The notes below the pieces were generated by a model. The model had not been told where the DNA came from. It was given only the letters and a program-made list of their open reading frames with translations, and did no database searches. Below, piece after piece: positions 24,464-47,707 of a DNA stretch of 51,211 bases; position 1 is the stretch's first letter; each line of letters begins with the position of its first letter. Source of the DNA: a virus (Duplodnaviria; Caudoviricetes). Made by a program: the position numbers and the translations under genes. The DNA lies in IMG/VR virus record IMGVR_UViG_3300020043_004509, positions 1-51,211 of that record. The stretch is one strand, 5' to 3'.

Positions 24464-24838
24464 CTAGACCTCTAGCGCGATGATTATGTTGGCTATGTGG
24501 TCTGTAAGTCGTTCACGTTCGTTGGCTATGGCATCAATGGTGGTATATCGTTCTACGCCAACCATGTACAGAGGGTCTGTTATGTCGTGGCAAAGCTCAT
24601 GGATGAGGCACTGACGTAGCTCTTCCTTGTCACCATCACGCCAGTATCTCATGGCTGCTTCACCATACTTGAGGTGGCAGGTCTTGTATGGGTACATATT
24701 GGCATGTTCCATTAGACTGCTGCTCCTCAGACTCTCAACGTACTGAATCGAGAATGTATGGTCTTGAACAAGCAACACTTTTCTGTACTTGTCAACTACC
24801 TTATGCACCCATTTCTCAAATTCTTTTCTATCCTTCAT
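24464..24838 (-). CDS. HEXXH zincin-like protein (start re-called at 24838)
   Basis: 'LIHELCH' with downstream E in 'NERERL'. Confidence 0.6.
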   Translation of the reverse strand: MKDRKEFEKWVHKVVDKYRKVLLVQDHTFSIQYVESLRSSSLMEHANMYPYKTCHLKYGEAAMRYWRDGDKEELRQCLIHELCHDITDPLYMVGVERYTTIDAIANERERLTDHIANIIIALEV

Positions 24839-25193
24839 ATCGTGACAAGATGTCTTCATCACGTACAAATAGGAAGTCTACACCCTCGCTGCGAACCTTG
24901 ACTGATGAGTACTTACCAAAGATTACAAAGTCTCCTTCCTTAACAGGTGATGGCTCGCGTACGCCAGACTCCAGTAAGCGGCCGCGCCCAACCTTAAGAA
25001 CAAGACCAAACTCAGGCTTATCCTCGTATTGATTAGGCCGGAATACCTTTCCTTCCTGCTCAAAGTCTACAGCAGCGATGAGTACGTTATCCTGTAGTAG
25101 CTGGTGCTTCAGCAGGTTTCTCACTTCCTCCTGTGACTTCGCCTTCTCCACTAGTGTCTGAAGCTGTTCCTTGATTGTCATCTGTAGATTCAT
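24828..25193 (-). CDS. groES: Co-chaperonin GroES
   Basis: 'LQDNVLI', 'GLVLKVGRGR', 'VKEGDFVIFGKYS', 'VRDEDIL'. Confidence 0.9.
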   Translation of the reverse strand: MNLQMTIKEQLQTLVEKAKSQEEVRNLLKHQLLQDNVLIAAVDFEQEGKVFRPNQYEDKPEFGLVLKVGRGRLLESGVREPSPVKEGDFVIFGKYSSVKVRSEGVDFLFVRDEDILSRYEG

Positions 25194-25389
25194 TAACTTT
25201 TAAGATTACTACCTGAGCATCTGGTCGGAATGAACCATCGCCATTCTGTCGAATCCGTGGCAAGAGACCAGCTGCGTAAGTTTCTCCCATTGCCTTGGTT
25301 GCCTTAGTTCCGTATGTAACAAACAAACTACGCATCTTTTCTACTAACTCCTGTGTGAGCTTTTCTACTTTACTTGGTGTCTGTGGCAT
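25087..25389 (-). CDS. Hypothetical protein between groEL and groES
   Basis: ORF overlapping both neighbours; acidic disordered C-terminus. Confidence 0.55.
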   Translation of the reverse strand: MPQTPSKVEKLTQELVEKMRSLFVTYGTKATKAMGETYAAGLLPRIRQNGDGSFRPDAQVVILKVNESTDDNQGTASDTSGEGEVTGGSEKPAEAPATTG

Positions 25390-26899
25390 TTTCTTTCTGG
25401 TTAACAATGATAAATCCGCTGGTCAGTACTGCGATAGCTACGGATGTTGCGTTAATAATTGCAAGCTTTGTAACTTCGTATGGGTCGATAACTCCTGCTT
25501 TAAGTAAATCCTCGAAGGTGTCTGTCTTGGCATTGTACCCGTAGGTATCTGTTGTCATGGACAGTATGTAGTCTTCGTGCTTCCCGCAGTTGCGTGCAAT
25601 CTGACGTAGGCTTGACTCTCCGAACTTAAGGTACATCGGGTCTGATTCTTCACGTGTTGCAGCATATAGAGCGAGGCCGCCGCCGACAAGATAACCATCG
25701 CGTAGAGCAGACCGAGTAGCATTAATTGAATCTTCATAACGATAGATGTTTTCTTGTACCTCAATCTGAGTAGCCCCTCCTACATTCACTGTGACTACAC
25801 CATTAGTAAGGGATGATAAGCGTCGTTCAAACTCTTTGTTGTCTGGCTCTGACTCCTTCTCCTTCTTCACTGACTCAATAAGGTCGAGCAGTTTAGGGTT
25901 GTAAGGATTGACTGTCTGGAACACAGAACGGTCTCGTGTGGCATATACCTTTGCTGCAACGATGAAGTCATCGACAGTAATCTTACCAACAAGCTTCCCT
26001 GACTTCTCTGTGATGGCTTCACCGCCGAGGAAGGTAGCCAGGTCATAGATTGGTGACATGTCACGGTCTCCAGTATCAAGCTTAACCAAGAGTAGGTTGA
26101 TGTACTTATTAATATGGTTTGCCATGAGGAAGTTTGGCGCTTTACCAATGAAGTCTCGTGCAACAATCACAAGGTTCTGGATACCATTCTCTAGGGCTGC
26201 TGCAAGGATAGACTGACATTCCTCTTCATAATAGAGTCGCTTGTCTGTAACGAGTACGTGCACATTCTCATAGGTTGCCCGCCCTACGCCGTCATTGGCA
26301 AGCTCCTGTGCGAATAGGCCTGTGCTAACTACATACCCGGTATCCTCTACTACCTCTGTCTTACCTGTGAGAGATTGGTTAATGAAGACAAGACCTGATT
26401 CTCCTGCTGACTTAACTACCTTAAGTACATTCTCAGCAATCTCAGCATCGTTGTTTGAGGAGATAGATGCAATACTTAGAAGCTGTGCGTCATCCTCTAC
26501 CTTGATAGGATTAAGGTTCTCAGTGACTCGTTTACTGAAGTCTAGTAGTTCCTTACGCAACTCCATCTCATTCATTCCGTCGTCAATCTTCTTGTACCCT
26601 GCCTTGATTAGGTTTGATGCTAGGAGAGTTGTGGTTGTTGTACCATCTCCAGCAGCTCGATTTGTTTCAAGGGCAGCATACTTAATCACTCGTATGATTG
26701 CATCCTCTACAGGGTCTTCAGATTCAATCTGCTTTGCAATAGTAACGCCGTCGTTAGTGACAAAGATGCCACCATGTGAGTCTTCAAACAGCACGTTTTT
26801 CCCTTTTGGTGATAGGGTCTGCACCACAGGTTCTGTGATGAGGTCTACTCCAGAGAGGATACGTGAGCGAATCTCACGACTATTTTTTATTTGTTTCAT
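25370..26899 (-). CDS. groEL: Chaperonin GroEL (phage type, no GGM tail)
   Basis: 'TLSPKGKNV', 'VTNDGVTIAK', 'AGDGTTT', 'GVIDPYEV'. Confidence 0.95.
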   Translation of the reverse strand: MKQIKNSREIRSRILSGVDLITEPVVQTLSPKGKNVLFEDSHGGIFVTNDGVTIAKQIESEDPVEDAIIRVIKYAALETNRAAGDGTTTTTLLASNLIKAGYKKIDDGMNEMELRKELLDFSKRVTENLNPIKVEDDAQLLSIASISSNNDAEIAENVLKVVKSAGESGLVFINQSLTGKTEVVEDTGYVVSTGLFAQELANDGVGRATYENVHVLVTDKRLYYEEECQSILAAALENGIQNLVIVARDFIGKAPNFLMANHINKYINLLLVKLDTGDRDMSPIYDLATFLGGEAITEKSGKLVGKITVDDFIVAAKVYATRDRSVFQTVNPYNPKLLDLIESVKKEKESEPDNKEFERRLSSLTNGVVTVNVGGATQIEVQENIYRYEDSINATRSALRDGYLVGGGLALYAATREESDPMYLKFGESSLRQIARNCGKHEDYILSMTTDTYGYNAKTDTFEDLLKAGVIDPYEVTKLAIINATSVAIAVLTSGFIIVNQKENATDTK

Positions 26900-29434: not shown

Positions 29435-29477
29435 GCTTAAATAAAACTCAAACACACATTGTCTGAGATGTAAAGTG

Positions 29478-29550
29478 TAGGCAATCTAGGAATTGAACCT
29501 AGGACTTGCGAGGTATAAGCTCGCTACTCTGACCACTGAGTTAATTGCCT
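29478..29550 (-). tRNA. tRNA-Ile(UAU); CCA not encoded
   Basis: Full cloverleaf AGGCAAT/ATTGCCT; ACTC/GAGT; GCGAG-CTTATAC-CTCGC; CTAGG-TTCAATT-CCTAG. Confidence 0.92.
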
Positions 29551-29818: not shown

Positions 29819-30016
29819 TCAACGCTCACGACGGTTGCCGTGGCGATTCCCTCGAATCCTGATATAGAGAGCATCGTCTTCCATATCAGCCTGTTTCAGT
29901 TTGCAGGACTGGCTGCAAAAGAATTTGTCATTGTATTCAAGCATTTCCTTCTGATGCTCAAGCTGTTGGCACCATGCGCATTTGCGGTGTGCTTGAAACT
30001 CAGGTTCTTTGCTCAT
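29819..30016 (-). CDS. Small TRASH/FCS-type zinc-finger protein (start re-called at 30016)
   Basis: CAWC...FCSQSC. Confidence 0.6.
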   Translation of the reverse strand: MSKEPEFQAHRKCAWCQQLEHQKEMLEYNDKFFCSQSCKLKQADMEDDALYIRIRGNRHGNRRER

Positions 30017-30191
30017 GGCCGTTTCCTTGCAGGTGGTTGATGTAGAAATTGTTGGCGCATTGCAGGTTGCAAAACGCATACTGCATCGTACCACGGCCGA
30101 TGTGCCGAGTAACCCACAGCGGTGTCACCGTGTACTGCTTACAACACTGACACATGTATGGCTTCTCAAAGATTGGAAAGTGAGTCTCCAT
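30000..30191 (-). CDS. Small TRASH/FCS-type zinc-finger protein
   Basis: CQCC...FCNLQC; promoter TTGCAA-17-TAGACT at 30255-30227. Confidence 0.6.
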   Translation of the reverse strand: METHFPIFEKPYMCQCCKQYTVTPLWVTRHIGRGTMQYAFCNLQCANNFYINHLQGNGHEQRT

Positions 30192-30261: not shown

Positions 30262-31236
30262 CTAGAATAAATCTTGTGCTGTAATGCTCTTGCTCTTCTT
30301 GTTGTAGTTAACCGAACGCTTCTGGAAGAAATCAGTATGCTTGGTGGTCATAACCTCATCGTCAAACCATGATGTCTTGTCAGCAAGCTCTTGATTGATT
30401 TCAAATATGGTAGGGAATCCAGCCTGCTTAAGCGAGTTATTCATGCGCACCTTTATAAACTCGACTACCACTTCTTTAGGAATGAATGACGGTTCGCCTA
30501 GCTCATACATCCAATCTACAACCTTCATCTCATTATTAAATGATACAATAGAAGCGTCGAGCACTTCCTTATCAAGCTCCGTGGTGAACCAGTCTGGGTT
30601 CTCTGAGCGTATGATATTAATTAGCTCTATGCCAAACAGTGCGTGGATTTGCTCCTCTTTACTTGTGGCCTCAACAGCGTTGCTCATACCCTTGAATAGG
30701 TTACGATGCTTATTAAAGCTCATCATAACAAGGAACTGGGCGAAGAGTGAGACATTCTCAATAAACACTGAGAACAGTAATATTGACTTAACGAAGTCTT
30801 TAATATCCTCCTCCTTTGACTTGGCGATAATTCCGCTTAGGAAGTCTATACGCTCCTTAATTACCGGCACCTCTGTAAGAGCTTCAAACTCATCATTAAG
30901 GTTAAGAATCTCTACAAGGTGTGAATACGCATCCATGTGACGTACCTCACTCTCGGCGAATGTGAAGCCAACGGCACCTATCTCTGGCTTTGGCATCTTA
31001 GCATAGAGGCTCCCCCAGAATGTCTTTACATTAACCTCAACCTGAGCAATAGCAAGCATCGCCCGCTTAATCAATTCACGTTCTGCCTCGGTTACATTAA
31101 CCTTGAAGTCCATAATGTCACTGGTGAAGTTGAACTCCGTGTGTACCCAGTAACTGTGCCGTACAGCATCAACGTACTCCACTAGCTGCGGATATTCGTA
31201 TGGCTTCAGCGTCTGTCGTTTCTTAAAAATATTCAT
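30262..31236 (-). CDS. nrdB: Class I ribonucleotide reductase beta subunit, class Id-like
   Basis: Ferritin-fold ligands E67, E97/H100, E160, E195/H198; Y104; K71; C-terminal 'DFFQKRSVNY'. Confidence 0.92.
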   Translation of the reverse strand: MNIFKKRQTLKPYEYPQLVEYVDAVRHSYWVHTEFNFTSDIMDFKVNVTEAERELIKRAMLAIAQVEVNVKTFWGSLYAKMPKPEIGAVGFTFAESEVRHMDAYSHLVEILNLNDEFEALTEVPVIKERIDFLSGIIAKSKEEDIKDFVKSILLFSVFIENVSLFAQFLVMMSFNKHRNLFKGMSNAVEATSKEEQIHALFGIELINIIRSENPDWFTTELDKEVLDASIVSFNNEMKVVDWMYELGEPSFIPKEVVVEFIKVRMNNSLKQAGFPTIFEINQELADKTSWFDDEVMTTKHTDFFQKRSVNYNKKSKSITAQDLF

Positions 31237-31290
31237 AGTAGTGACAATAAAACCACGCTAGGCGTGGCTTACTGTGTAGTGCTTTAACGG

Positions 31291-31485
31291 TTAACCTTCG
31301 CAGCTAATACAAACTCCTGCACGTGGTGACTCGCCTGATGGCATAGATTGAACTTCAATACTATCCTCAATGTCTTCAAGCTGTCGTTTAAGGGCGCGGT
31401 GTTCCTGGTCATCCTCTGAGTAGTCACTCATCTTAGCTCGTACCTCCTCTGCTTTCTTGGTTAGTTCTGCAATGTAGTCTGTCAT
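31291..31485 (-). CDS. 64-aa coiled-coil protein ending in NrdA-like redox tail CISCEG
   Basis: C-terminal 'GVCISCEG*'; start overlaps upstream stop (ATGA). Confidence 0.75.
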   Translation of the reverse strand: MTDYIAELTKKAEEVRAKMSDYSEDDQEHRALKRQLEDIEDSIEVQSMPSGESPRAGVCISCEG

Positions 31486-31934
31486 AATCGTTTAGACCAG
31501 CAGGATTGAGATGCTCTCCATGGCTGAGTGCCCTGGGTATCGTATAGATAGCTTGCATAGCCCCAATTTCCTTCCGGTGTGAAAATATCGTATCCAAGCG
31601 CCGTAGCTGTTTTGAGATGGTAGTGAGTATTAATCTGACACATACCTGTATCTCTGCTATCGACACGACCAGTAATAACTGTTACACCATCGCGTTCATA
31701 TTGCTGTGGTTCGCCAGTGCCATAGATATCACTCTCACAGCTACAAATAGCTTTAAGTACTGGATTATCTAGGACAAGAGGTTCCTCTACAACAACTTCT
31801 TCTACGATTACTACTTCTGGTGTAACTTCTGCGATTGGCTCTGGCTGCTTATCCTTTGCAAAGGCAAGGAATAATGGCGCAATCAGGGCGGCGACTGTCA
31901 GTAGTGCGACAAGTCTTAGTGGTTTATTTAAAAT
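31482..31934 (-). CDS. Signal-anchored lysozyme/lytic-transglycosylase-like protein, non-canonical start; not in ORF track
   Basis: Hand translation: hydrophobic N-term, 'AICSCES', 'DTGMCQINTHYH', 'GNWGYASYLY..QGTQPW..SQSCW'; start position uncertain. Confidence 0.8.
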   Translation of the reverse strand: MLNKPLRLVALLTVAALIAPLFLAFAKDKQPEPIAEVTPEVVIVEEVVVEEPLVLDNPVLKAICSCESDIYGTGEPQQYERDGVTVITGRVDSRDTGMCQINTHYHLKTATALGYDIFTPEGNWGYASYLYDTQGTQPWRASQSCWSKRL

Positions 31935-32046
31935 AAGCCTTAATATTACCCCCGACTTTCACGATACCATTTGCTTCCGTGACTTGAGATGGTATGCCTT
32001 GGGTTCTGACAAGCAGATGATTAAATTACCGTTAGGTAAGGGGTTT

Positions 32047-32075
32047 AGTATACCAAACTATTAGTATTACTTCAA
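32047..32075 (-). promoter_or_regulatory. Promoter for lysozyme leader
   Basis: TTGAAG-17-TATACT with TG extension. Confidence 0.75.
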
Positions 32076-32076
32076 C

Positions 32077-32916
32077 CTATTCAATGGGTAAAACTTCTAG
32101 CTCAATCTTGTTCCATCCGTCTGAATAATGGTATAAATCTAGCCCCTCGACAGTCCATCCTTTCTGCTTAAGTATGTCTGCATAGAATGATAGTTGATGC
32201 TGATACTGTGTGAGACTATCTTTCTTGAGTTCAAAGTTAGTCTTATAGTCACCAATGCGACACACCTTTTTATCTATGTCAAGTATCTGAAGTCTGTCGA
32301 TACGTCCAGCACGCTTGTTTGCAACATCAGAGATTAGGACTTCACTCTCGGCTTCGTCACCAAACTGTTCAACGAAAGAAAGTACAATGTCACGCAAGTA
32401 ATGAATCTTAGGCAGTGCGTAGTTGTCATCCATATCCTTGAGGCTCTGAATCTTACTACCCATCTTATGATAACGATGGTATACCTCTAGGGCTGTATGG
32501 ATTGCAGAACCGTATTCAGTAGAAAGGCGGCCATTCATATCCCAAAGCTCACCCAACTCTACACTGTCTACGTCCCATGCCTTAGCAGTCTTAGGTAGCA
32601 GCATCTCCTTGTTGAATTGAGGAACCTTAGTGGCAGCATAGGCTGAACCAGACAAGAGAGCGTTACCATTCTCATCGAAGTATTTATGCAGGTGGTCGTT
32701 GTAGATAACAAACTCATCTGTGAATGTTTTAAGTTTGACTCCATCACCAGTTTTGGACACCAGTGGACGTTCTCCAAACTTATCCCAGATAGATTGAATA
32801 TGTTTCTCTGCATCTGCCTTGAGCGCTTCAATATCATCACCCTCTAGTTCAATCTCTGGTTGCAGGTTCCCGTATTGAACGGTGGGGATAACAGCGGCAA
32901 GTTTATATTTATACAT
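32077..32916 (-). CDS. PD-(D/E)XK exonuclease (RecB/Cas4-like)
   Basis: 'GSAIHTALE', 'AGRIDRL', 'GDYKT', 'YQHQLSFY'. Confidence 0.85.
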   Translation of the reverse strand: MYKYKLAAVIPTVQYGNLQPEIELEGDDIEALKADAEKHIQSIWDKFGERPLVSKTGDGVKLKTFTDEFVIYNDHLHKYFDENGNALLSGSAYAATKVPQFNKEMLLPKTAKAWDVDSVELGELWDMNGRLSTEYGSAIHTALEVYHRYHKMGSKIQSLKDMDDNYALPKIHYLRDIVLSFVEQFGDEAESEVLISDVANKRAGRIDRLQILDIDKKVCRIGDYKTNFELKKDSLTQYQHQLSFYADILKQKGWTVEGLDLYHYSDGWNKIELEVLPIE

Positions 32917-33947: not shown

Positions 33948-34211
33948 TTATAGTTTTATTAGTTCTTTTACTGCTTCATTAAATGGTATTCCTAGAGCAA
34001 CACAGAAATCAATTGCATTGTGGCCGTTTTTACCGCAGCCAAAGCAGTGATAAGAGTTGTTAGGGTATAGGGCGAACGATGGGCTGTGGTCTCTGTGGTC
34101 GGGGAACGGGCACGATATAGATACCCTACGCCCTGGATTTGAGAGACCCAGCAAAGTGTATATACTAACATCTCTTGCTCGTTGAATATCTTCTTTAGTA
34201 ATCATCGTCAT
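33948..34211 (-). CDS. Stand-alone CHC2 zinc-binding domain of primase
   Basis: 'CPFPDHRDHSPSF...YHCFGCGKNGHNAIDF...FNEAVKEL'. Confidence 0.88.
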   Translation of the reverse strand: MTMITKEDIQRARDVSIYTLLGLSNPGRRVSISCPFPDHRDHSPSFALYPNNSYHCFGCGKNGHNAIDFCVALGIPFNEAVKELIKL

Positions 34212-35649
34212 AATCTGATAGAACGCCCGTTGATGAGTTCATGCTAAATCTCTTACATGTCATTTCTCCCTTGTTCTTCACTATATCTATATCCACAGTG
34301 CCCTCCTCTTCAGATGAAAGCATGATGACACATTCAGGGTCTTGATATAGTGATGAGCTGCCCTTAAGGTCTTCGATTCCAGGCTTTCTTGATATGGCGG
34401 CACCTGCCTGTTCAATCTTGCGAATGTGCGTCACTACGATGAATACAATCTTGTGCTGTTCTGCTATGCGCTTAAGCTCTTGCATTGTATTAGAAATCTC
34501 AGTCTCACGATTGCCTGATGTGTGGCGAATCAAGTAGTCTAGGTGGTCTACAATCACGAACTTGGTATCGAATAGACGTTTAGATTTTATAATCGTGTCT
34601 ATGATATCCTCCTTCTTTGGAACTGTAAAGTACACCGGGAGGTCTACTACTTTGTCGATGTGCTTACCCCAGTCTACTTTGGACGTAAACTTGAGAGCAT
34701 CGGCACTCTTATTAAATAGCACCTGTAGAAATCGCTTACCTACACTGATGTTGCCACGCTCGAATGGCATAACAAGGCACGGAATCTTCTTCTCTGCTAG
34801 TTCCTTAACCATATTAAGGATTACCGTTGTCTTACCTATGTTCGACTTACCAGATAGAACGATTAGCCAGTCCTTCTCAATTTGCACCTTTGGAATCAGC
34901 GTAATCTCGTAGGCATCGTCTTCATCCTCCATGAAGTTGACGATGATATCTCCAACACTCTTGAACTGATGTGAGTAGAATGGAGATGCTACCTTGATTA
35001 GATTAAGAAAATCTTCTTTCGTACCCTGTTTAAAGAAATCATTTGCATCCTTAATTCCGCTAGGGTATTTAACTTCAAACGTCTTCTCTACTCCTGTTCT
35101 GTCTGCAAACTTCACTGCTGTAGACTTCCCTGCTTCGTCGTTATCATAGGCTAGGTACACTCGTGGGATAGTGTCTAGCAGTTCAAGCCATACTCCATAG
35201 CTATCCTTACCTGATGCTGGAGATACTACGTTCTTGATTCCAGCCTGCCAGCACGCCATGAGGTCAAACTCTCCTTCTACGACTAGTACGCCACCCTTCT
35301 TACGAGCCTCCTCTATACCTTCTTCATGGTAGAGCCACACCTCAGCGCCGGTCTCCTGGGTATACTTGGCCTTGTCTGGGTTAAGTAGTCTGTACTTGAT
35401 ATTGATAAGTTCTTTGTTCTTGAACACGGGGATTGCTACAGCATTCTTGCTTTCGTCATACCCTAGTTCAAAGTGCCGGATTGTTTCTTCATTAAACGCT
35501 CTCTCGTTTTTGAGGTATGTTAGAGCCTCTTGCCCTGTATCATTCCACAATGCTTCTTTCATCTTGTCAAGTGAATCACGAGGCGGTTTTATGTAGTCCT
35601 TACCAACCGCCTGCCTGATTGACATTATTCTCTCAGTAAATTCTGACAT
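34195..35649 (-). CDS. TOPRIM primase-DnaB-like helicase fusion (T7 gp4/Twinkle-like) lacking zinc domain
   Basis: 'VVEGEFD', 'YDNDEAG', 'KDAND', Walker A 'GKSNIGKT', 'IVDHL', 'DLKGSS'. Confidence 0.9.
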   Translation of the reverse strand: MSEFTERIMSIRQAVGKDYIKPPRDSLDKMKEALWNDTGQEALTYLKNERAFNEETIRHFELGYDESKNAVAIPVFKNKELINIKYRLLNPDKAKYTQETGAEVWLYHEEGIEEARKKGGVLVVEGEFDLMACWQAGIKNVVSPASGKDSYGVWLELLDTIPRVYLAYDNDEAGKSTAVKFADRTGVEKTFEVKYPSGIKDANDFFKQGTKEDFLNLIKVASPFYSHQFKSVGDIIVNFMEDEDDAYEITLIPKVQIEKDWLIVLSGKSNIGKTTVILNMVKELAEKKIPCLVMPFERGNISVGKRFLQVLFNKSADALKFTSKVDWGKHIDKVVDLPVYFTVPKKEDIIDTIIKSKRLFDTKFVIVDHLDYLIRHTSGNRETEISNTMQELKRIAEQHKIVFIVVTHIRKIEQAGAAISRKPGIEDLKGSSSLYQDPECVIMLSSEEEGTVDIDIVKNKGEMTCKRFSMNSSTGVLSDYDDDY

Positions 35650-40931: not shown

Positions 40932-41134
40932 TCCCTAAAGATATCAGATACATCCAGTCCTCGGCAAGTGGATTTATCCACAGGTGGCTTATGATAGACC
41001 TGTCTTTCGTCGTAATTAAGGTGCTGCTTGATTCCACGCTTTCGTTTAATAGGCACTTCACGCACTACAGTAAATCCAAAGGGGTCAAATGTTATAGTTG
41101 GTGCACTCACTCGAATGATATTTTCTTCATCCAT
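40928..41134 (-). CDS. Hypothetical protein
   Basis: 68 aa, overlap-coupled. Confidence 0.5.
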   Translation of the reverse strand: MDEENIIRVSAPTITFDPFGFTVVREVPIKRKRGIKQHLNYDERQVYHKPPVDKSTCRGLDVSDIFRE

Positions 41135-41885
41135 GATTGATTAAATTATCTATAGCCTCTAAATAATTATCCATCGTTTGTTCCTCCATGGCGGGGGCGC
41201 AATTTACCTCAAGGACATATACATTTCCGCTAGTATCCTTTATGATATCTACCGCACCAAACACTAATCCTAGAGCGTCTACAGCATCTATAGCGAGCTG
41301 TTCAATGCGCTCAAGCCGTCTAAGATTCTGGCTGCGAAATACCCATCCAGTTCCCAGATTACGCACCATACGTTCATCTTCTGTTGGCGTGTCATCATAG
41401 CGGCGAGACTTCTTCCTGTAGTCTATTACCTTCCCATCAAAGACATGGACACGATACTCACCGTCACCTTCGATTGATTTGGTGTACAGAGGAGCGTGGG
41501 GGAAATCAGTGTCTTCTGGCCGGACAATCTGAAGGCCATTAGCGCTGTGTGATGTTACCTTGTGCCGGGCATACACTACCCCTTCCCAGAATAGAGCCTC
41601 CTCATGCTCTACTGTGAACTCAGGAATCGAAATACCGTGTGCCTGAAGAACCTGGAAACAGGAAATCTTATTCACTGCCTGTGCCACAGCTTCAGGATGG
41701 TTTACATAGCTGAGGTCTTCTGTATGCCACCTAGGTAGTTTTGAGTTACCCCAATTAATAATAATATCATCTTCTGTTGGTCTGAATTTACGGTCAGGAT
41801 ATACCCTCGGTACACCCATCGCACGAGCGAGGTTTCGCCCACTCGTTGAACCCATCTTGTAGGGGTAGATAACTATGCGTGCCAT
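41127..41885 (-). CDS. ATP-grasp ligase (RimK/phiEco32-like)
   Basis: 'IINWG', 'NK', 'EYRVHVF', 'RN', 'FGAVDII', 'VLEVNCAP'. Confidence 0.9.
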   Translation of the reverse strand: MARIVIYPYKMGSTSGRNLARAMGVPRVYPDRKFRPTEDDIIINWGNSKLPRWHTEDLSYVNHPEAVAQAVNKISCFQVLQAHGISIPEFTVEHEEALFWEGVVYARHKVTSHSANGLQIVRPEDTDFPHAPLYTKSIEGDGEYRVHVFDGKVIDYRKKSRRYDDTPTEDERMVRNLGTGWVFRSQNLRRLERIEQLAIDAVDALGLVFGAVDIIKDTSGNVYVLEVNCAPAMEEQTMDNYLEAIDNLINHG

Positions 41886-41963
41886 TTTTGATTTTAAGCG
41901 TTAATTTTTGGTAAGATGAGCATTGTATCGTCTTTACGGTTTACGACGCTCCTAGGGGCAATT

Positions 41964-42776
41964 TCAGGCGTTTGGCGATGTGCTGGAGGCTGAGTCAGGA
42001 TAGCCAATCTTACTCAGGTAGCGATTAAGGTGTTTTTCGACCTCTTTCTCGTTGTCTATGTCAACCTTCAGGACATTGCGGATGTAGGCTGAGATGGCAT
42101 CGGCATTGGTAGGGAGCCAAGTCAGGGGAAAGGCATTGTCAGAGAGGCGCTTGAAGGTGAAGTCATCGGTGCCGGTAGCGCCACGCCACTGGAAGAATTG
42201 CATGAGCAAGAGTGCGATGCGCTGCTCTGAGTTTTGCTCAAGCAAAGGTTTGAGTGTTCTACCTACTCTGCCGAAGTCAACAGTCGGCTTGGTGCCGTAG
42301 GTATTTTGCCATAACAGGGAGTAGAAACTAATCACCCTTTGTAACTTGCTGCGACCAGTTACAGGTAGACATTTTTGACTAGGCTCAACTATATCTTTAG
42401 ATATAGTATCTTGTATTATTATACTTGTATTATTCTGTTCCTCATTTTTGCGGAGGGGGTCTGATAATTTTTGAGGAGCTGACCGTGGTAATTTTTGACT
42501 AGGTGAGCATGGTGTAATCTTGCGAATAGCATCACCTCCACTGCCATCTTTTATCTTAATAGCACCATGGTCTTGCAGCTCTGTCAATACCCTAGATATT
42601 GTTGCTGTACTTTTTTTGAATACGTTTTCAAAATAAGCATTTGATGCAAAACAGTACCCATTTTTATTTGACAAAGCATTTATTTCAGAATAAATAACCT
42701 TAGCAAAACTACTCAGTCCTTCTTGGTATCGTACATTTGCAGGTAGGATACCGTACATGTTTGGCTTATCTTTCAT
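41964..42776 (-). CDS. Replication initiator (N-terminal wHTH, lambda O/replisome-organiser-like)
   Basis: 'ILPANVRY..LS..AKVIYSEI...GYCFASNAYF...TISRVL.EL'; internal DNA repeats. Confidence 0.8.
   Translation of the reverse strand: MKDKPNMYGILPANVRYQEGLSSFAKVIYSEINALSNKNGYCFASNAYFENVFKKSTATISRVLTELQDHGAIKIKDGSGGDAIRKITPCSPSQKLPRSAPQKLSDPLRKNEEQNNTSIIIQDTISKDIVEPSQKCLPVTGRSKLQRVISFYSLLWQNTYGTKPTVDFGRVGRTLKPLLEQNSEQRIALLLMQFFQWRGATGTDDFTFKRLSDNAFPLTWLPTNADAISAYIRNVLKVDIDNEKEVEKHLNRYLSKIGYPDSASSTSPNA
42371..42503. repeat. Iteron-like ATTTTTG(ACTAGG) repeats inside rep gene (putative ori)
   Basis: Copies at 42371, 42444, 42467, 42491; AT-rich tract 42390-42440. Confidence 0.6.
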
Positions 42777-42835
42777 AGGCTGATGATACCATACATCCTG
42801 TTGTATTACAACTAGTAATTCTATGTATCTGTGTT

Positions 42836-43927
42836 CTAATCTTCTTCATACCGAATGTCTCGCTGATATGGTGAAGGAACGCCTGATAATTGCTCATCAA
42901 GCTCATCATATTCCCGCATTTTCTTCTCAAGTTTACGGTTGATTCCGGCAATTTCCTCACGTATTGCTTCTGATTCAGACAGGTCTCGAACAGTCAGAAG
43001 TTCTCCTCGCCAATACTCACGTTCAGACTCAAGAACAATGATATTCTCATCAATAAGTTGTAGCTGGTCATAGCCATAACTGTAGGCATCCTCACTGTTT
43101 TTGAAGTCACGTACCCTTGGCGTTGCTGCTGGTAGTGTGAACCCCATACGTGGCTCCTGAACAGTCGGGTTTTTGTATGTTGTACCTATATGAACTTCCA
43201 TGCTGTGTAGACTGCTATCATCATAGTTTTCCCAGAATATTACTCCTGTAGGCACGGCCTCTCCGTCATTGTGAGAGTGAAAGATATCATAGTTACCCTT
43301 CTTATGCTTCACAGGGCGATAGAATAGAGGATTGCCTGTGTTATGACCCCAGATGCGCTTAATAACACGGTTCGTGCCCTTCTCTATCTGGTACATCATA
43401 AAGGCAATAGTGCCAGCCACGTTGATGTCAGTGATTACACCCTCCTCAAACAGGGCAAGCTCTATAGCGAGCGACTCACTGTCGTTGAATTTGGTGTGCT
43501 GGTCTAAAAGGAAAACCTGACCAAGATGCGTCACACTTTTTCCCACTATGTGTTCTGTTGTATACTCAAAACCAATCTTCTTATGGCGGTCTCGTGCCAG
43601 AGAAGGGGTTTGAATTACACCGTTATGGATAACCATGTAGTCATATTTCAGACCTTTATTACTCACCACGATAGGGTGTGTAGCAAAGATTAAGTTGTCC
43701 GTCGATGTCGGTTTTCGGTGGTGAAACATAATTTCAGGCGCTGTCTCTTGACTAAGCATCCGAAGTATATCCTTTTCCTCTGTGGCTCGCTCAATACGCG
43801 CCACTCCGTAGTCTACAGCGATGTAGCCAAACCCCTCAGAGCCGCGTGATTTCTGCTTTAGATACGCCTCCTGAATGATATTGGACACTCGCTTGCTCTT
43901 GCGTTTAGCAAAGATGATTCCGCACAT
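42836..43927 (-). CDS. Class II (Ntn) glutamine amidotransferase
   Basis: N-terminal 'MCGI', 'SRGSEGFG', 'HHRKPT', 'HP', 'IHNGVI', 'DSE'. Confidence 0.9.
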   Translation of the reverse strand: MCGIIFAKRKSKRVSNIIQEAYLKQKSRGSEGFGYIAVDYGVARIERATEEKDILRMLSQETAPEIMFHHRKPTSTDNLIFATHPIVVSNKGLKYDYMVIHNGVIQTPSLARDRHKKIGFEYTTEHIVGKSVTHLGQVFLLDQHTKFNDSESLAIELALFEEGVITDINVAGTIAFMMYQIEKGTNRVIKRIWGHNTGNPLFYRPVKHKKGNYDIFHSHNDGEAVPTGVIFWENYDDSSLHSMEVHIGTTYKNPTVQEPRMGFTLPAATPRVRDFKNSEDAYSYGYDQLQLIDENIIVLESEREYWRGELLTVRDLSESEAIREEIAGINRKLEKKMREYDELDEQLSGVPSPYQRDIRYEED

Positions 43928-45105
43928 TAGATTGGTTGTTTAAGAAGTGTATAATGTTCAACAAGTCGCTTAACATAGCGCTCCATACGTCGATTAAGCC
44001 CTAGGAATCCAATCATAGCACGTGTCTTTTCTGATATGTCTTTTATGTCCTTTAGGGCAATCATGTCCTTTAAGTCAACACCGTTTCCAATCTTTTGAAT
44101 GATTGAATCATGTAGCTCTACCCATAGTAGAATCTTCATGTGGTCAGTTGTTGGTGGGTGCGAACGTACCTCGATGGTTCCATAACGATACCATAGACTA
44201 TGTAGATTGATGTCATGGTAACGACTATCATCACGTTTATTACGTACACGACGCTCTACACCATCTATAGAAGACTCACGATACCACAGTCGCCTGATTT
44301 CATCGTATGATTCACACGACTCAATCTCGTCAAGAGTAAATACCTCCTCAAGCGGCACACAATAGGCATTGCGTATCTTGCGGCTGTCTGGCACCATAGA
44401 CTGCATTACGTCACTGAATAAAGTGTAGAAGTAGAATAGGTTCTTAATCTTATAGAATGGCTCTGTTTCTTCTGTCTCGACAAGAGTTAACAGATTACGA
44501 CGCAGCTTCATCTTTGATGACAGAAACTCCTCAGTTAGTTCAGTTTTACCAGACTCGACAATAGCGTTTAATTCATCCCTGTTTACTGAAAAAATAGTTG
44601 GTACTTTTCCTGAGTAAACCATAAAGTCTCGGTCTCCCACGCCTCTACCATAGTAGAATTTTGGCGATACCCCCTGAATTGATGAACAGATACGAGCAAC
44701 GTCGTACTGAGTGGTATTCCCCGTGCGTTTGCTAAGTATCTCAACATCACGCTTTGATATGCGTGCAATTGCACGGCCAACGATAGGCTCAGAATCCTTG
44801 ACTAGCTCATAATGCTTGTCCTGTAAGTAATCATGCGCCCCAATGTGCACATGAACGCTACAAGAAGTATTATCAGATATTACATGATTGTCATTGAGGA
44901 TAGAGCATACCTTCTCTATGATTTTGCACCCATCTTCACCCATTAGAACTGGCGTAACAATCTCTACCGGCGATATAGTCTCATCAAGAGAGCCATCACG
45001 CATCATCTGCATATTCCCTGGTAGTTTTTCCCGTACAAGCTGTCGGTAGTCGTCATTCTCAAACCCTACTTCAAGCTCAACTCCAAAGGTGCGATTAATT
45101 TCCAT
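43927..45105 (-). CDS. Amidoligase (Amidoligase_2, phiEco32-like); start re-called at 45105
   Basis: 'FGVELE', 'DGSL', 'EIVTPVL', 'CSVHVHIG', 'RY..IN', 'TIEVRSH'. Confidence 0.88.
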   Translation of the reverse strand: MEINRTFGVELEVGFENDDYRQLVREKLPGNMQMMRDGSLDETISPVEIVTPVLMGEDGCKIIEKVCSILNDNHVISDNTSCSVHVHIGAHDYLQDKHYELVKDSEPIVGRAIARISKRDVEILSKRTGNTTQYDVARICSSIQGVSPKFYYGRGVGDRDFMVYSGKVPTIFSVNRDELNAIVESGKTELTEEFLSSKMKLRRNLLTLVETEETEPFYKIKNLFYFYTLFSDVMQSMVPDSRKIRNAYCVPLEEVFTLDEIESCESYDEIRRLWYRESSIDGVERRVRNKRDDSRYHDINLHSLWYRYGTIEVRSHPPTTDHMKILLWVELHDSIIQKIGNGVDLKDMIALKDIKDISEKTRAMIGFLGLNRRMERYVKRLVEHYTLLKQPI

Positions 45106-46072
45106 AGAGCAATATTTTCTCGATGCCCGGATTGTAAACATCGTGCTCCTTCCAGTAGTCTGCCCCTATTTTAGTGATGTCAAATCCGTTCTTCATACGA
45201 TTTAGGAGACTATCGAATGTGCGAGAGCTAATTGTGTAGTATTCAGCTGGATATATCTCACCTACATGCTCCGTAAAGAATGCTCTCAGACGCTCAAAAT
45301 TGACCGTAGCGAGGTTTTTATCGTTGTTGTTGATGGCAGACACCACATCCTCACTTGGCACCAAGGAGAGCAATTCCTGGTCAAGGTCATTGTGTACGAT
45401 GTGTACCGCTTCTCGTGCTAGTCCATACACTAGTGACAGGTACGTGTAGTGACCGAGCCAGAAGTTGCCCAGTGTACGATACTCTACTCCGTATGACTTG
45501 TCACGGTACTCTCCAGCCCGTCCATAGGTCTTACGACGCTCTACCTGTGTAGGGTCTTGGTCAAAGGCAACAGATATGTTACCGACCAATAGGTCTAATA
45601 CAGGAACCAGACGCTTTACGTCAACCAAATCCTTATCAAACGATAGGTGGATGTGGCCTCCTGCTGGACGGAACATATAATGCTGAGGGTCTTTTCCCAC
45701 AGGATTTTCTCCATATACATTTGCTGATGGTACACATCCAAACATCTTGGAGTCCTCTGATAGACGTGCAAATGAATTTGCCGGAATATCATACCCGCCA
45801 CCGAGCACAATATTGTACCCAATCTCATCAGCAAGTCGGTATGCCTGTCTAACACGCGATGATATTTCTTGGCGACAAGTTGAGGGTGCAAAGTTCATCT
45901 CTCCCTGAAAACCATCGCGTATCAATTTTGTAGCTCCGCTTTCGCTAGTATAATCACCATCAGGTAGTGCCACCTTTGATTCAACTACTTTTTCCCCCTT
46001 GAATATTGTACCCTTAGACTTAAAGAAAAACTCAGGGTCTCCTCCAAGTCCTACCCAAATCTGTTTATTCAT
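45095..46072 (-). CDS. COOH.NH2 ligase type 2 (phiEco32-like); start re-called at 46072
   Basis: 'GGDPEFF', 'DG..GE', 'FGC', 'GGHIH', 'RR..YGRAGEYR.K.YGVEYRTLGNFW'. Confidence 0.9.
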   Translation of the reverse strand: MNKQIWVGLGGDPEFFFKSKGTIFKGEKVVESKVALPDGDYTSESGATKLIRDGFQGEMNFAPSTCRQEISSRVRQAYRLADEIGYNIVLGGGYDIPANSFARLSEDSKMFGCVPSANVYGENPVGKDPQHYMFRPAGGHIHLSFDKDLVDVKRLVPVLDLLVGNISVAFDQDPTQVERRKTYGRAGEYRDKSYGVEYRTLGNFWLGHYTYLSLVYGLAREAVHIVHNDLDQELLSLVPSEDVVSAINNNDKNLATVNFERLRAFFTEHVGEIYPAEYYTISSRTFDSLLNRMKNGFDITKIGADYWKEHDVYNPGIEKILLYGN

Positions 46073-46424
46073 ACGCAATATCAATGACATCTCGTGTATA
46101 AGCTTCAATTCTCTCCCCTCCGAGCATATCCTCGCTCTCAACTACCCACATCGTTGCTTCTCCGAATGGTGTATTGATAGTTGTCTGGACATAACCTGCC
46201 GAAACTTCCATCATATCGAGAGCCTCAAATGTCTCTTCGCGAACCTCAAATACCTCTACCTCGTGCTCGCCACCATCTTCTGTAAGGAATAAGCGTGGGT
46301 ATGCACCGTACACAAGGCTCATAAGGCCGCGCACCACCATATTACCCAGATAAACCTGCTCACCCATCCGTCCGTGATTGTAGAACTCCCGCTTGAGACT
46401 ACCGTATGTTGCAATTAATTTCAT
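46065..46424 (-). CDS. Gamma-glutamylcyclotransferase (AIG2/GGCT-like)
   Basis: 'YGSLKR..NH', 'YP', 'LD.ME..GY'. Confidence 0.88.
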   Translation of the reverse strand: MKLIATYGSLKREFYNHGRMGEQVYLGNMVVRGLMSLVYGAYPRLFLTEDGGEHEVEVFEVREETFEALDMMEVSAGYVQTTINTPFGEATMWVVESEDMLGGERIEAYTRDVIDIAYE

Positions 46425-46780
46425 TAGAATGGATATTCTGAATCGTCCTTATAAATGTACTCTCCATGTCCAAGCGCCCACCTCTTAAGCTTTGGGTAAT
46501 CAATGATGTAAATCCAGGCTCTGATGTTACGTCCTGAATTTGGATTTTTTGTCAGTGGTGTCTCTACAACCTCACCGACACCAAGTTTCTCGATTAACTT
46601 CTTAAGTCCCATACCACGACGTTCACATACAAAGTTGTCAGTGAATAAAGCCATCGCAAAACGGTATTCTTTTCGTATCTTATAGATTTCGTACAGCTGT
46701 TCTCGCGGCTGTGAAAGATTATAGAACTCCTTAAGGCCACAACAGGTACTATGTTTGACTGACATACTAGAGTCCACCAT
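46424..46780 (-). CDS. Hypothetical protein coupled to ligase cluster
   Basis: 118 aa, 'STCCGL', 'NPNSG'; TAATG overlap. Confidence 0.7.
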   Translation of the reverse strand: MVDSSMSVKHSTCCGLKEFYNLSQPREQLYEIYKIRKEYRFAMALFTDNFVCERRGMGLKKLIEKLGVGEVVETPLTKNPNSGRNIRAWIYIIDYPKLKRWALGHGEYIYKDDSEYPF

Positions 46781-47141
46781 AAGCTACCTTCTTTAATAAT
46801 TTCTTGATATATCGAGTTCTGCCAAGAAGTTGCTGCTGTTCTTCGTGTGTGAATGCGTCACGTTCATCCATAAGCTTGCCTACAAGTCGTGTAACAATGA
46901 TAGGGATAATGATTAGTGGCACCACGTGCATCAGAATCATGGCATCAATGCGCCCAATGACTGTTACGGGGTACATGTCACCGTATCCAACAGTCATCGA
47001 GGTAACACTTGCCCACCAGAGAGAATCCCATAGTGATTTTGATTCAGCTAATGCAAATACGATAGCGCTTAGGCTCACAAAACCAAGATAGATACAGATT
47101 AACTCACGAAATGTATCTGTATAGCGATTAATTGATTTCAT
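46767..47141 (-). CDS. KcsA-like 2-TM potassium channel
   Basis: TM1, pore helix 'DSLWWASVT', filter TVGYGD, 'YPVT..GR', TM2. Confidence 0.92.
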   Translation of the reverse strand: MKSINRYTDTFRELICIYLGFVSLSAIVFALAESKSLWDSLWWASVTSMTVGYGDMYPVTVIGRIDAMILMHVVPLIIIPIIVTRLVGKLMDERDAFTHEEQQQLLGRTRYIKKLLKKVAYGGL

Positions 47142-47143
47142 AG

Positions 47144-47707
47144 TTAGAAGTTAACATCTACACTCTTTTCGGCACCACTTACTGACTTAAACAGCGATAC
47201 CTTTACAAAACCAAATGCTCCAGCAAACATATTCTTAGGGAATCGCGTCACGTTCTGGTTGTAATTTGTCGCAACCTGATTAAAGTTATCCCGCTTAGTT
47301 GCAATACCATTCTCTGTACCTGCTAATTCAGCCATAAGTGACTGCACAAGCTGGTTTGACTTAAGTTCCGGGTATGCTTCTTGTAGGCGTGGCAACAGTG
47401 CAATACTAGTCTCCATCTGATTCATAGCCTCTACCTTCTCACCAACAGTTCCAGCGCCACTAATTGCCCGTCGTGAATCTGCAATCTTACCGAACACTTC
47501 TATTTCCTGCTTTTGCCCACCCTTAACAGAGGCCACAAGATTATCAATAAGGTCAAAACGTCGCTGATACTGTGTCTCAACCTGCGCCCATGCATTATCT
47601 ACCTGTGCCTGTGCTGTAACAAGTGAGTTATAGTTTCCTACAAACCACATACCCATCACTCCAATAAATGCTACAACAATACCTCCAACAATTGATACTT
47701 TTGACAT
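47144..47707 (-). CDS. lemA: LemA family protein
   Basis: N-terminal TM, 'YNSLV...AWAQVETQYQRRFDLI.NL', 'EAYPELKSN', 'TEN', 'FP.N..A..FGF'. Confidence 0.93.
   Translation of the reverse strand: MSKVSIVGGIVVAFIGVMGMWFVGNYNSLVTAQAQVDNAWAQVETQYQRRFDLIDNLVASVKGGQKQEIEVFGKIADSRRAISGAGTVGEKVEAMNQMETSIALLPRLQEAYPELKSNQLVQSLMAELAGTENGIATKRDNFNQVATNYNQNVTRFPKNMFAGAFGFVKVSLFKSVSGAEKSVDVNF

Follow-up and report, generated by a model that had tools for sequence, protein, structure and literature searches.

In an ordinary class I ribonucleotide reductase (RNR), a cysteine pair at the C-terminus of the alpha subunit reduces the active site, and is then recharged by thioredoxin or glutaredoxin. The virus record IMGVR_UViG_3300020043_004509 (51,211 bases, the whole of which is referred to here as the window) raises the question of what such a tail might do as a protein of its own. 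On the minus strand it carries a 64 amino acid (aa) open reading frame (ORF) with an alpha-like terminal cysteine pair, immediately followed by a beta subunit gene, nrdB, that has no partner nrdA. On balance, this mini-protein is probably a trans-acting alpha-tail module, which would serve a class Id alpha of the host in company with the phage beta.

A tail-bearing mini-protein beside an orphan nrdB

The features of the locus are as follows.

31291-31485, minus strand: gene for the 64 aa mini-protein (ATG 31483-31485, TAA 31291-31293)
31345-31482, minus strand: predicted helical hairpin, residues 2-19 and 27-47 (AlphaFold2)
31294-31344, minus strand: low-confidence linker and terminal motif (C-I-S-C-E-G at 31294-31311)
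30262-31236, minus strand: class Id nrdB, 324 aa, intact and orphan (Pfam, PHROG and PDB matches)

A first-pass annotation had read the small ORF as a helical hairpin followed by a flexible tail and a terminal VCISCEG, and both the ORF list and the AlphaFold2 model agree with that description. The C-terminal end of the protein is ...SMPSGESPRAGVCISCEG, with VCISCEG as the last residues before the stop and the cysteine pair at C59 and C62 of 64. In the model, built with a two-sequence alignment (A2), helices span residues 2-19 and 27-47. The mean predicted local distance difference test (pLDDT) value is 80.4, with 34 residues at or above 90, blocks of 85-94 across residues 1-40, and values of about 50 for residues 48-64. 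The CxxC falls within the last ~10 residues of this low-pLDDT C-terminus, as in alpha tails, and the ending C-x-[ST]-C-E-[GA]-stop is that of class Id alpha subunits. At the DNA level the same pattern occurs once in the window (0.03 expected) and was matched in 3 of 100 shuffled versions.

The mini-protein gave no Pfam match above cut-off, only sub-threshold coiled-coil-like matches, and no PHROG or NCBIfam match. Having no Pfam or NCBIfam redoxin match, and a model consisting of two helices only, it is not a glutaredoxin or NrdH redoxin. Nor is it an extension of an alpha subunit, being a free-standing ORF in a record without a PF02867 match, or part of a split catalytic subunit of the NrdJa/NrdJb type, the window being without an alpha. 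Judged from its sequence and predicted fold, its only recognisable functional element is a class Id alpha C-terminal redox tail mounted on a two-helix hairpin. The hairpin could provide stability, docking on alpha or beta, or recognition by the reductant.

The nrdB gene starts 54 nucleotides (nt) downstream of the mini-ORF on the same strand. Its product matches Pfam PF00268 (E 6.1e-53), and the best solved relatives are 6sf4, 5olk, 8dq3 and 6cwo (E 1.3e-128 to 3.8e-93), of which 6sf4, 5olk and 6cwo are the Leeuwenhoekiella and Flavobacterium class Id proteins. By these sequence matches it is a class Id (NrdBi) beta. Its alpha counterpart NrdAi is equated with class Id in the part of PMC9669993 that treats it, where the characterised members are from F. 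johnsoniae and A. ureae. Of 118 positions with at least 95% conservation among 95 relatives, the window NrdB keeps 113, the C-terminal D-L-F included, and it looks functional. A 95.6% identical strain from freshwater metagenome runs differs by 84 substitutions over 1901 nt; the 40 that are listed all lie in nrdB, and 31 of them fall at third codon positions. The strain shows no indel in the mini-ORF. Among listed RNA runs, none contains this part of the window. Near the 3′ end of its nrdB there is a compensating +1/-1 indel pair (30291/30298).

The orphan status of nrdB, also proposed in the first-pass annotation, was borne out. PF02867 gave no match across the 51,211 bases, and tblastn of the window with three NrdA proteins reached a best E of only 0.077. 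The same tblastn comparison found no degraded nrdA within the window, and that possibility was set aside.

Class Id alpha subunits with and without a tail

Relatives were collected through their NrdB sequences as four sets of 80 loci, two from viral_contigs and one each from metagenome_contigs and genome_contigs. Their gene order is nrdB followed by nrdA, and their NrdA proteins, of 541-580 aa, end in C-x-[ST]-C-E-[GA]-stop (in fuller form, C-[ASVTI...]-[ST]-C-E-[GA]-stop). A beta-alpha order is likewise given for 70 of 104 NrdAi operons in the operon survey of PMC9669993. Since nrdA usually lies downstream of nrdB in this clade, the mini-ORF is not at the nrdA position, and the first-pass statement that it stands where nrdA would be does not hold. 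Loci that were cut by the locus end, had no nrdA or were masked fall outside the following counts.

viral_contigs, first set: 80 loci, NrdA tailed in 73, tail-less in 1 (L003)
viral_contigs, second set: 80 loci, NrdA tailed in 67, tail-less in 1 (L091, the same contig as L003)
metagenome_contigs: 80 loci, NrdA tailed in 53, tail-less in 9
genome_contigs: 80 loci, NrdA tailed in 61, mostly Flavobacteriaceae, tail-less in 16

The tail-less NrdA proteins are complete, and stop about 10 residues past a ...AAQQxxRKKL stretch with a lysine-rich end and no cysteine pair. The nine metagenome contigs that encode them (L171-L173, L178, L180, L188-L191) are among those nearest to the window NrdB (59-66% identity), and the sixteen genome loci (L251-L264, L266, L267) are from Patescibacteria. 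A scan of GTDB genomes with one such protein also located the type in Patescibacteria (Paceibacteria, Kaiserbacteria, Saccharibacteria and others). All 48 alpha sequences in an alignment share C81, C251 and C266, of which C81 and C266 are the active-site pair in L171 numbering, so that the active-site cysteines are retained in the tail-less type, which would still need a reductant.

In a quick NrdB tree, all sequences associated with a tail-less alpha fall in one clade (Shimodaira-Hasegawa-like approximate likelihood ratio test support, 96). Its sister group is accompanied by long, tailed NrdA proteins ending in ...K-x-x-V-x-V-x5-C-V-S-C-E-[GA]. Many NrdB proteins of Patescibacteria and Flavobacteriaceae carry a conserved N-terminal extension of ~22 residues (..AKAYIxYRxE..) that is missing from the window NrdB (alignment A4), and which may be a remnant of an ATP-cone.

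Tail proteins in genomes with a tail-less alpha

Whole genomes were searched for the DNA pattern of the tail motif plus stop, with the following results.

Patescibacteria with a tail-less class Id alpha (n = 16): free tail protein in 14; 1 spurious match; 2 genomes without a match
Patescibacteria with a tailed class Id alpha (G019, G020, G021; n = 3): free tail in 1 (G019); 2 matches are the NrdA proteins' own ends; no match in G021
Bacteroidota with a tailed alpha (n = 16): free tail in 0; 16 matches are the NrdA proteins' own ends, 2 spurious
Other Patescibacteria, evenly drawn (n = 30): free tail in 0; 3 spurious matches

Free tails were found in 14 of 16 genomes with a tail-less alpha compared with 0 of 16 Bacteroidota and 0 of 30 other Patescibacteria, the 16 versus 16 comparison being one of genomes returned by similarity search, not a random sample, and of metagenome-assembled genomes (MAGs) without reported completeness. 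Of 19 Patescibacteria genomes that encode a class Id alpha, 16 contained the pattern; its reversed form gave 4 matches in total. The 30 evenly drawn genomes held a single class Id alpha, which is tailed (CIGACEA). This distribution, together with the identity of the motif to the class Id alpha ending, supports the earlier reading of the mini-protein as a free-standing copy of the alpha tail.

Eleven of the 14 free tail proteins have a glutaredoxin fold and three are short peptides (38-59 aa). The former are 85-149 aa as read, including one truncated by a contig end, and most are 99-104 aa long. PF00462 scored above cut-off on the four that were scanned, which places these in the thioredoxin fold. 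Their layout is an active site, mostly CPFC, then a linker and an ending of the form ...KPR[VI]H-x5-C-x-S-C-E-G. The three short peptides have an FDLP-x-V motif before the same tail ending. A search for the glutaredoxin-tail family returned 337 proteins at E ≤ 1e-5, and the best 120 of these all end in CxxCEG. Annotated names are 'glutaredoxin 3', 'glutathione S-transferase N-terminal domain-containing protein' and 'hypothetical'. The collected set (loci L336, L339, L341-L347, L349 and L351; proteins P0006-P0125) is recognisable by ...KPRVHVGGSxCxSCEG ends. At the four loci with flanks listed, the adjacent genes encode a ~120 aa protein and a methionyl-tRNA formyltransferase-like product, and are not nrd genes. 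Against the UXX-star model NF041212, the Patescibacteria glutaredoxin-tail proteins scored 25-40 bits, through the redoxin domain only and below the 66-bit cut-off, and the mini-protein gave no match. The account of UXX-star proteins in PMC13188914, in the part concerned with them, draws no link to RNR.

The mini-protein does not belong to this glutaredoxin-tail/FDLP family. SPRAGV precedes its cysteine pair in place of R-[VI]-H-x5, and a hairpin lies upstream. When the hairpin type was compared by hhalign with the FDLP-type set (including the last 55 aa of a 130 aa viral protein described below), only the last 10 columns aligned, with a probability of 89%.

Viral and small relatives of the mini-protein

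A phmmer search with the mini-protein against 1.84 billion representatives, without a length filter, yielded four matches: the protein itself, P0004, and two long repeat proteins aligned to the helical part only. P0004 (68 aa; E 5e-4) can be aligned from end to end, with 37% of residues identical; it ends in NTCVSCEG, and is the sole sequence that conserves the hairpin. No longer, fused form of the mini-protein was present among the 1.84 billion representatives. Pattern scans of viral_contigs with the mini-protein or alignment A1 gave no more relatives of the helical type, and P0004 itself was found neither in viral_contigs nor in metagenome_contigs (alignment A2). A word-indexed search for relatives gave three of eight candidates, an Atlas search returned only leads below 0.9 and generic hairpins, and a hidden Markov model search of the 19 Patescibacteria genomes with the helical type matched the tail only. 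With helices and motif retained in P0004 at 37% identity, and no indel in the related strain, the mini-protein gene is evidently maintained.

Among the 80 nearest viral loci, only one other, L003, has an ORF of this kind. It is 46 aa long, ends in SCVTCEA, and its stop lies 1 nt before nrdB. The L003 portal protein is 54% identical to the window portal over 570 aa, making this phage kin to the phage of the window. Its mini-ORF is 49% identical to a Patescibacteria peptide of the FDLP type, its NrdB is nested inside the clade associated with tail-less alphas in the quick tree, and no viral locus other than L003 (and L091, the same contig) has a tail-less NrdA. A tail mini-ORF directly 5′ of nrdB, in the one viral contig with a tail-less nrdA, supports the free-tail reading.

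Two other viral contigs carry free tails. One (L370 1549-1689, minus strand) encodes a 46 aa FDL-type peptide beside a large terminase-like gene, and the other (L371 12928-13320, minus strand) a 130 aa protein in which a Cys-rich N-terminal region (CPGC...) leads into DFDLPDV and then the tail. The same tail is found, then, on four unrelated carriers, i.e., a glutaredoxin, the FDLP-type peptide, a helical hairpin and a Cys-rich domain, and by sequence it looks like a portable functional module. The mini-protein would work like the other free-standing tail proteins, which it resembles in the tail only.

Spacer hairpin and upstream frame

Two further features flank or adjoin the mini-ORF.

31253-31267, minus strand: terminator-like hairpin in the 54 nt spacer (CCACGC cua GCGUGG, a stem with a 3 nt loop, then UUUUAUU)
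31482-31958, minus strand: upstream stop-to-stop frame of 154-158 aa (context, outside the RNR module)

A terminator-like hairpin between the two genes had been noted previously, and folding is in keeping with it: the 59 nt spacer sequence has a folding energy of -15.9 kcal/mol (z -2.65), a stability reached by 3 of 200 shuffles. It was not called by a consensus terminator scan (0 found).

The ATG of the mini-ORF overlaps the stop of the upstream frame (ATGA), so that the mini-ORF closes a transcription unit and does not stand alone. The frame has 158 codons from stop to stop and covers an apparent gap of 590 nt 5′ of the mini-ORF. None of ATG, GTG and TTG occurs in it before 31643; with table 11 starts it could open only at the ATA at 31946 or at an ATT that lies a few codons further in. 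It gave no Pfam or PDB match. The N-terminus resembles a signal peptide (K/R, a hydrophobic run, then AFA), and an ES...GMCQIN stretch is reminiscent of lytic transglycosylases. A promoter-like site lies 5′ of the frame at 32075-32047. A group I intron or other RNA 5′ of the mini-ORF was considered and rejected: Rfam at the gathering score found two tRNAs only, and at E ≤ 5 there was one weak, chance-level match in 31200-32150, leaving the gap as an open frame without a canonical start.

Proposed role and alternative explanations

The active-site disulfide of alpha would need reduction after every turnover. According to the proposed mechanism, the reduced mini-protein would reach with its tail into the active site of a class Id alpha from the host, probably one without a tail of its own, and depart oxidised, and a host redoxin would then recharge it. 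The phage would bring beta (nrdB) and the tail, as the two exchangeable partners of alpha, and the host would supply the catalytic body. Since beta is intact in the phage and alpha is missing from it, the alpha served by the tail would be that of the host. Kinship with the L003 phage, and a best identity of 66% to the NrdB of a contig with a tail-less alpha, make a tail-less alpha in the host of the window phage plausible. From sequence we infer that the protein acts as a redox shuttle, as well as which alpha it serves, what reduces it and any part that the hairpin may have in docking. A predicted complex of the mini-protein, the window NrdB and a tail-less NrdA (L171), made with alignments, scored 0.03, where the mark to be reached was 0.32, and speaks neither way on binding.

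More broadly, the simplest account of the sequence data would be that in one class Id lineage the tail left alpha and came to be supplied in trans. Within that lineage the tail would usually sit on a glutaredoxin that could recharge it, and linked phages would hold minimal carriers beside nrdB. Extended to a 'trans-tail' class I architecture, in which Patescibacteria have a tail-less alpha with dedicated carriers, and a phage plugs its beta and a hairpin-mounted tail into the host alpha, the proposal is more tentative, and we would put it slightly short of an even chance. In that reading the phage of the window would be the most reduced case, having retained nothing of the enzyme but beta and the tail, and the host alpha would be one of the tail-less type.

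Several observations weigh against the trans-acting tail. The helical type has only two members, the mini-protein and P0004, and the latter has no recovered genomic context. The window NrdB has a branch of 1.52 in the quick tree, where the median for its relatives is 0.12, even though its conserved sites are kept; it is not placed in the tree, in the tail-less clade or elsewhere. The closest cellular relatives are Patescibacteria, and a comparison of the phage GroEL does not discriminate between phyla for the host (best match 35-36% identity and 256.6 bits in 61 Patescibacteria, versus 34% and 237.6 bits in 61 Bacteroidota). The NrdA reading frame of L003 enters an exact 99 bp inverted terminal repeat (ITR) at the contig end, making its true C-terminus uncertain. 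A scan of 55 of the 72 window ORFs detected no redoxin, so recharging would rely on the host. In Patescibacteria, the tail proteins are not beside nrdAB (none within 4 kb), and in one genome (G003) the tail gene and nrdAB are on different contigs. Two of the 16 genomes with a tail-less alpha (G014 and G018) gave no tail-pattern match, either because these MAGs are incomplete or because the motif varies. Lastly, G019, a member of the Paceibacterota with a tailed alpha, has a 33 aa ORF ending in NVCISCEG (L334 1501-1602, minus strand), so that free tails are not strictly limited to genomes with a tail-less alpha. Homologues unlinked to RNR genes, which the first-pass annotation had named as grounds for refutation, do in the literal sense occur in Patescibacteria; there, the tail proteins are tied to RNR through their presence in genomes with a tail-less alpha, and not through gene neighbourhood.

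Two side observations concern these loci. As 99 is a common k-mer size, the L003 repeat is suspected to be an assembly artefact, on which the label 'ITR, 100% complete' of its record (L003/G001) may rest. The 33 aa ORF of G019 is flanked by clpB-like and secreted-protein genes, in a region with short repeats.

The mini-protein might instead throttle or divert the host RNR, as a tail mimic that occupies the active site of alpha, or soaks up the host redoxin or glutaredoxin-tail protein. It has a tail without a redoxin domain, unlike most cellular carriers, and the lack of a phage redoxin among the scanned ORFs would suit such a role, for which yeast offers a parallel in the reported inhibition of R1 by the small protein Sml1, involving the tail site (PMC6382339, in a passage citing Zhang et al. 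2007). Against this, the phage nrdB is intact and under purifying selection, which argues for more dNTP (deoxyribonucleoside triphosphate) synthesis, not less; conservation extends to both cysteines and to the precise last residues, as it does in tails that work; and short peptides without a redoxin are also used by genomes with a tail-less alpha (3 of 16). A decoy or inhibitor appears unlikely, and of the three roles first suggested for the mini-protein, the sequence evidence favours supply of the tail in trans over a redoxin decoy or an active-site inhibitor.

A role for the CxxC outside tail chemistry, such as a dimeric, four-Cys metal or iron-sulfur hairpin acting in cofactor assembly for nrdB, or a function unconnected with RNR, is quite improbable. 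In principle, a four-Cys site could arise where a helical dimerisation module ends in CxxC, and the mini-ORF adjoins nrdB on one side and is translationally coupled on the other to an unrelated, secreted-looking protein. The match to alpha tails goes beyond CxxC, however, to the clade-specific S-C-E-G-stop, and a distribution complementary to that of alpha tails would be unexpected for a metal site.

Very improbable indeed is a functionless remnant, the last codons of a former nrdA 5′ of nrdB caught in a chance ORF: only the last 6-10 residues are NrdA-like, the family is a rare one, sequence searches having yielded three small relatives, and phage nrd regions are often rearranged, incomplete phage RNR gene sets of unknown function being noted in the text of PMC3653736, but nrdA of this clade sits downstream of nrdB and not upstream, the window has no other NrdA-like sequence, P0004 retains the whole length, helices and motif at a mere 37% identity, the hairpin is confidently predicted to fold, the start of the mini-ORF is coupled to the upstream frame, and the same tail recurs on other carriers just where alpha is without one.

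Other genes of the record

The IMG/VR record is rated 100% complete by CheckV, with 'linear' ends and without end repeats. The plus strand of the window carries the structural arm and the minus strand an arm for replication and metabolism, with genes for a primase-helicase, a PD-(D/E)XK exonuclease, a polynucleotide kinase, an RNA ligase, a dNMP (deoxyribonucleoside monophosphate) kinase, an exonuclease subunit, GroES, GroEL and an amidase. GroES (Cpn10) and GroEL are both phage-encoded (24831-26899, minus strand), and the latter is 30-36% identical to sampled bacterial chaperonins.

On the 3′ side of nrdB, at the position that nrdA has in the relatives, there are two small, overlapping Cys-rich ORFs (63 and 91 aa; 29819-30191, minus strand), the first of which barely reaches the Pfam zf-FCS cut-off. 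They are followed by a tRNA-Ile(TAT) at 29477-29550. The CHC2 zinc finger of the primase is encoded as a separate 87 aa ORF (33948-34211, minus strand), rather than as the N-terminus of the primase-helicase, and this ORF is downstream of, and overlaps, the Toprim-DnaB primase-helicase gene (34195-35649, minus strand). Further away, 41130-47707 (minus strand) holds an ATP-grasp protein (R2K/RimK-like), an Amidoligase_2 and a phiEco32-like COOH-NH2 ligase, then an ion-channel protein and LemA, a cluster that could be a peptide or metabolite ligation module.

Comparison with known systems

A close parallel is the tail of class I alpha itself (NrdA/R1, NrdAi), which has the same CxxC at the very tip of its disordered arm, the same terminal residues as in the class Id relatives, and the same presumed job of reducing the active-site disulfide and being recharged by a redoxin (as outlined in sections of PMC6187632 and PMC9669993). 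The mini-protein differs in being a separate 64 aa polypeptide, in a phage without alpha. In its account of NrdA, PMC6187632 states that all class I RNRs carry the cysteine pair in NrdA, a rule from which the tail-less alpha clade departs.

Redox tails encoded apart from the catalytic body have been described in class II, where the C-terminal redox part of the catalytic subunit is a separate polypeptide in the split NrdJa/NrdJb enzymes (PMC9669993, in the part on NrdJ). NrdJb is a folded protein, with an IscU-like and a zinc-finger domain, encoded beside NrdJa, whereas the present case concerns class I, with a bare tail and unrelated carriers. The window genome also lacks a catalytic body, and L003 has an alpha whose end is uncertain.

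Parts of the electron-delivery route to RNR are joined in glutaredoxin fusions, such as Grx::ATP-cone::NrdB of Facklamia ignava, which likewise involve NrdBi/class Id and are common in viruses (PMC6187632, in its treatment of fusions). In the known fusions the redoxin is attached to beta, alpha, NrdD or NrdJ and the tail of alpha is kept; in Patescibacteria the tail is on the redoxin and has been lost from alpha. The window mini-protein, in contrast to these fusions, has no redoxin domain.

Zhang and co-workers are said to have found in 2007 that the tail of yeast R1 can serve the active site of another polypeptide. The yeast tail remains part of R1, unlike the free-standing mini-protein. Sml1 is not known to carry a CxxC tail mimic. 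This small protein can compete at the R1 tail site, and the relevant passage of PMC6382339 covers both it and the CX2C motif, citing Zhang et al. 2007.

A large subunit made from separately encoded pieces is also found in Aeromonas phage Aeh1 (PMC3045599). There, nrdA was split by insertion of a homing endonuclease gene into two large fragments, both in the phage, and the split gives rise to no tail-only protein.

A search of the open literature, with subscription journals outside its coverage, gave no description of a class I alpha without a C-terminal cysteine pair, of a glutaredoxin with an alpha tail, or of a free-standing tail protein. The first-pass annotation had likewise known of no earlier description, and the wider pattern of a tail-less alpha with separate tails appears to be undescribed.

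Implications

Re-reduction of RNR is taught as an intramolecular task of the alpha tail, and a separate, exchangeable tail, if true, would revise that rule. It would also provide a clean handle on tail docking and on redoxin specificity, both of them difficult to observe with the tail disordered in alpha structures. For the bacteria concerned, which belong to candidate phyla with a minimal redox metabolism, hundreds of proteins annotated as 'glutaredoxin 3' or 'GST N-terminal domain' would be tied to the synthesis of DNA precursors. The phage, for its part, would take over dNTP synthesis by means of two small genes, and not a full enzyme.

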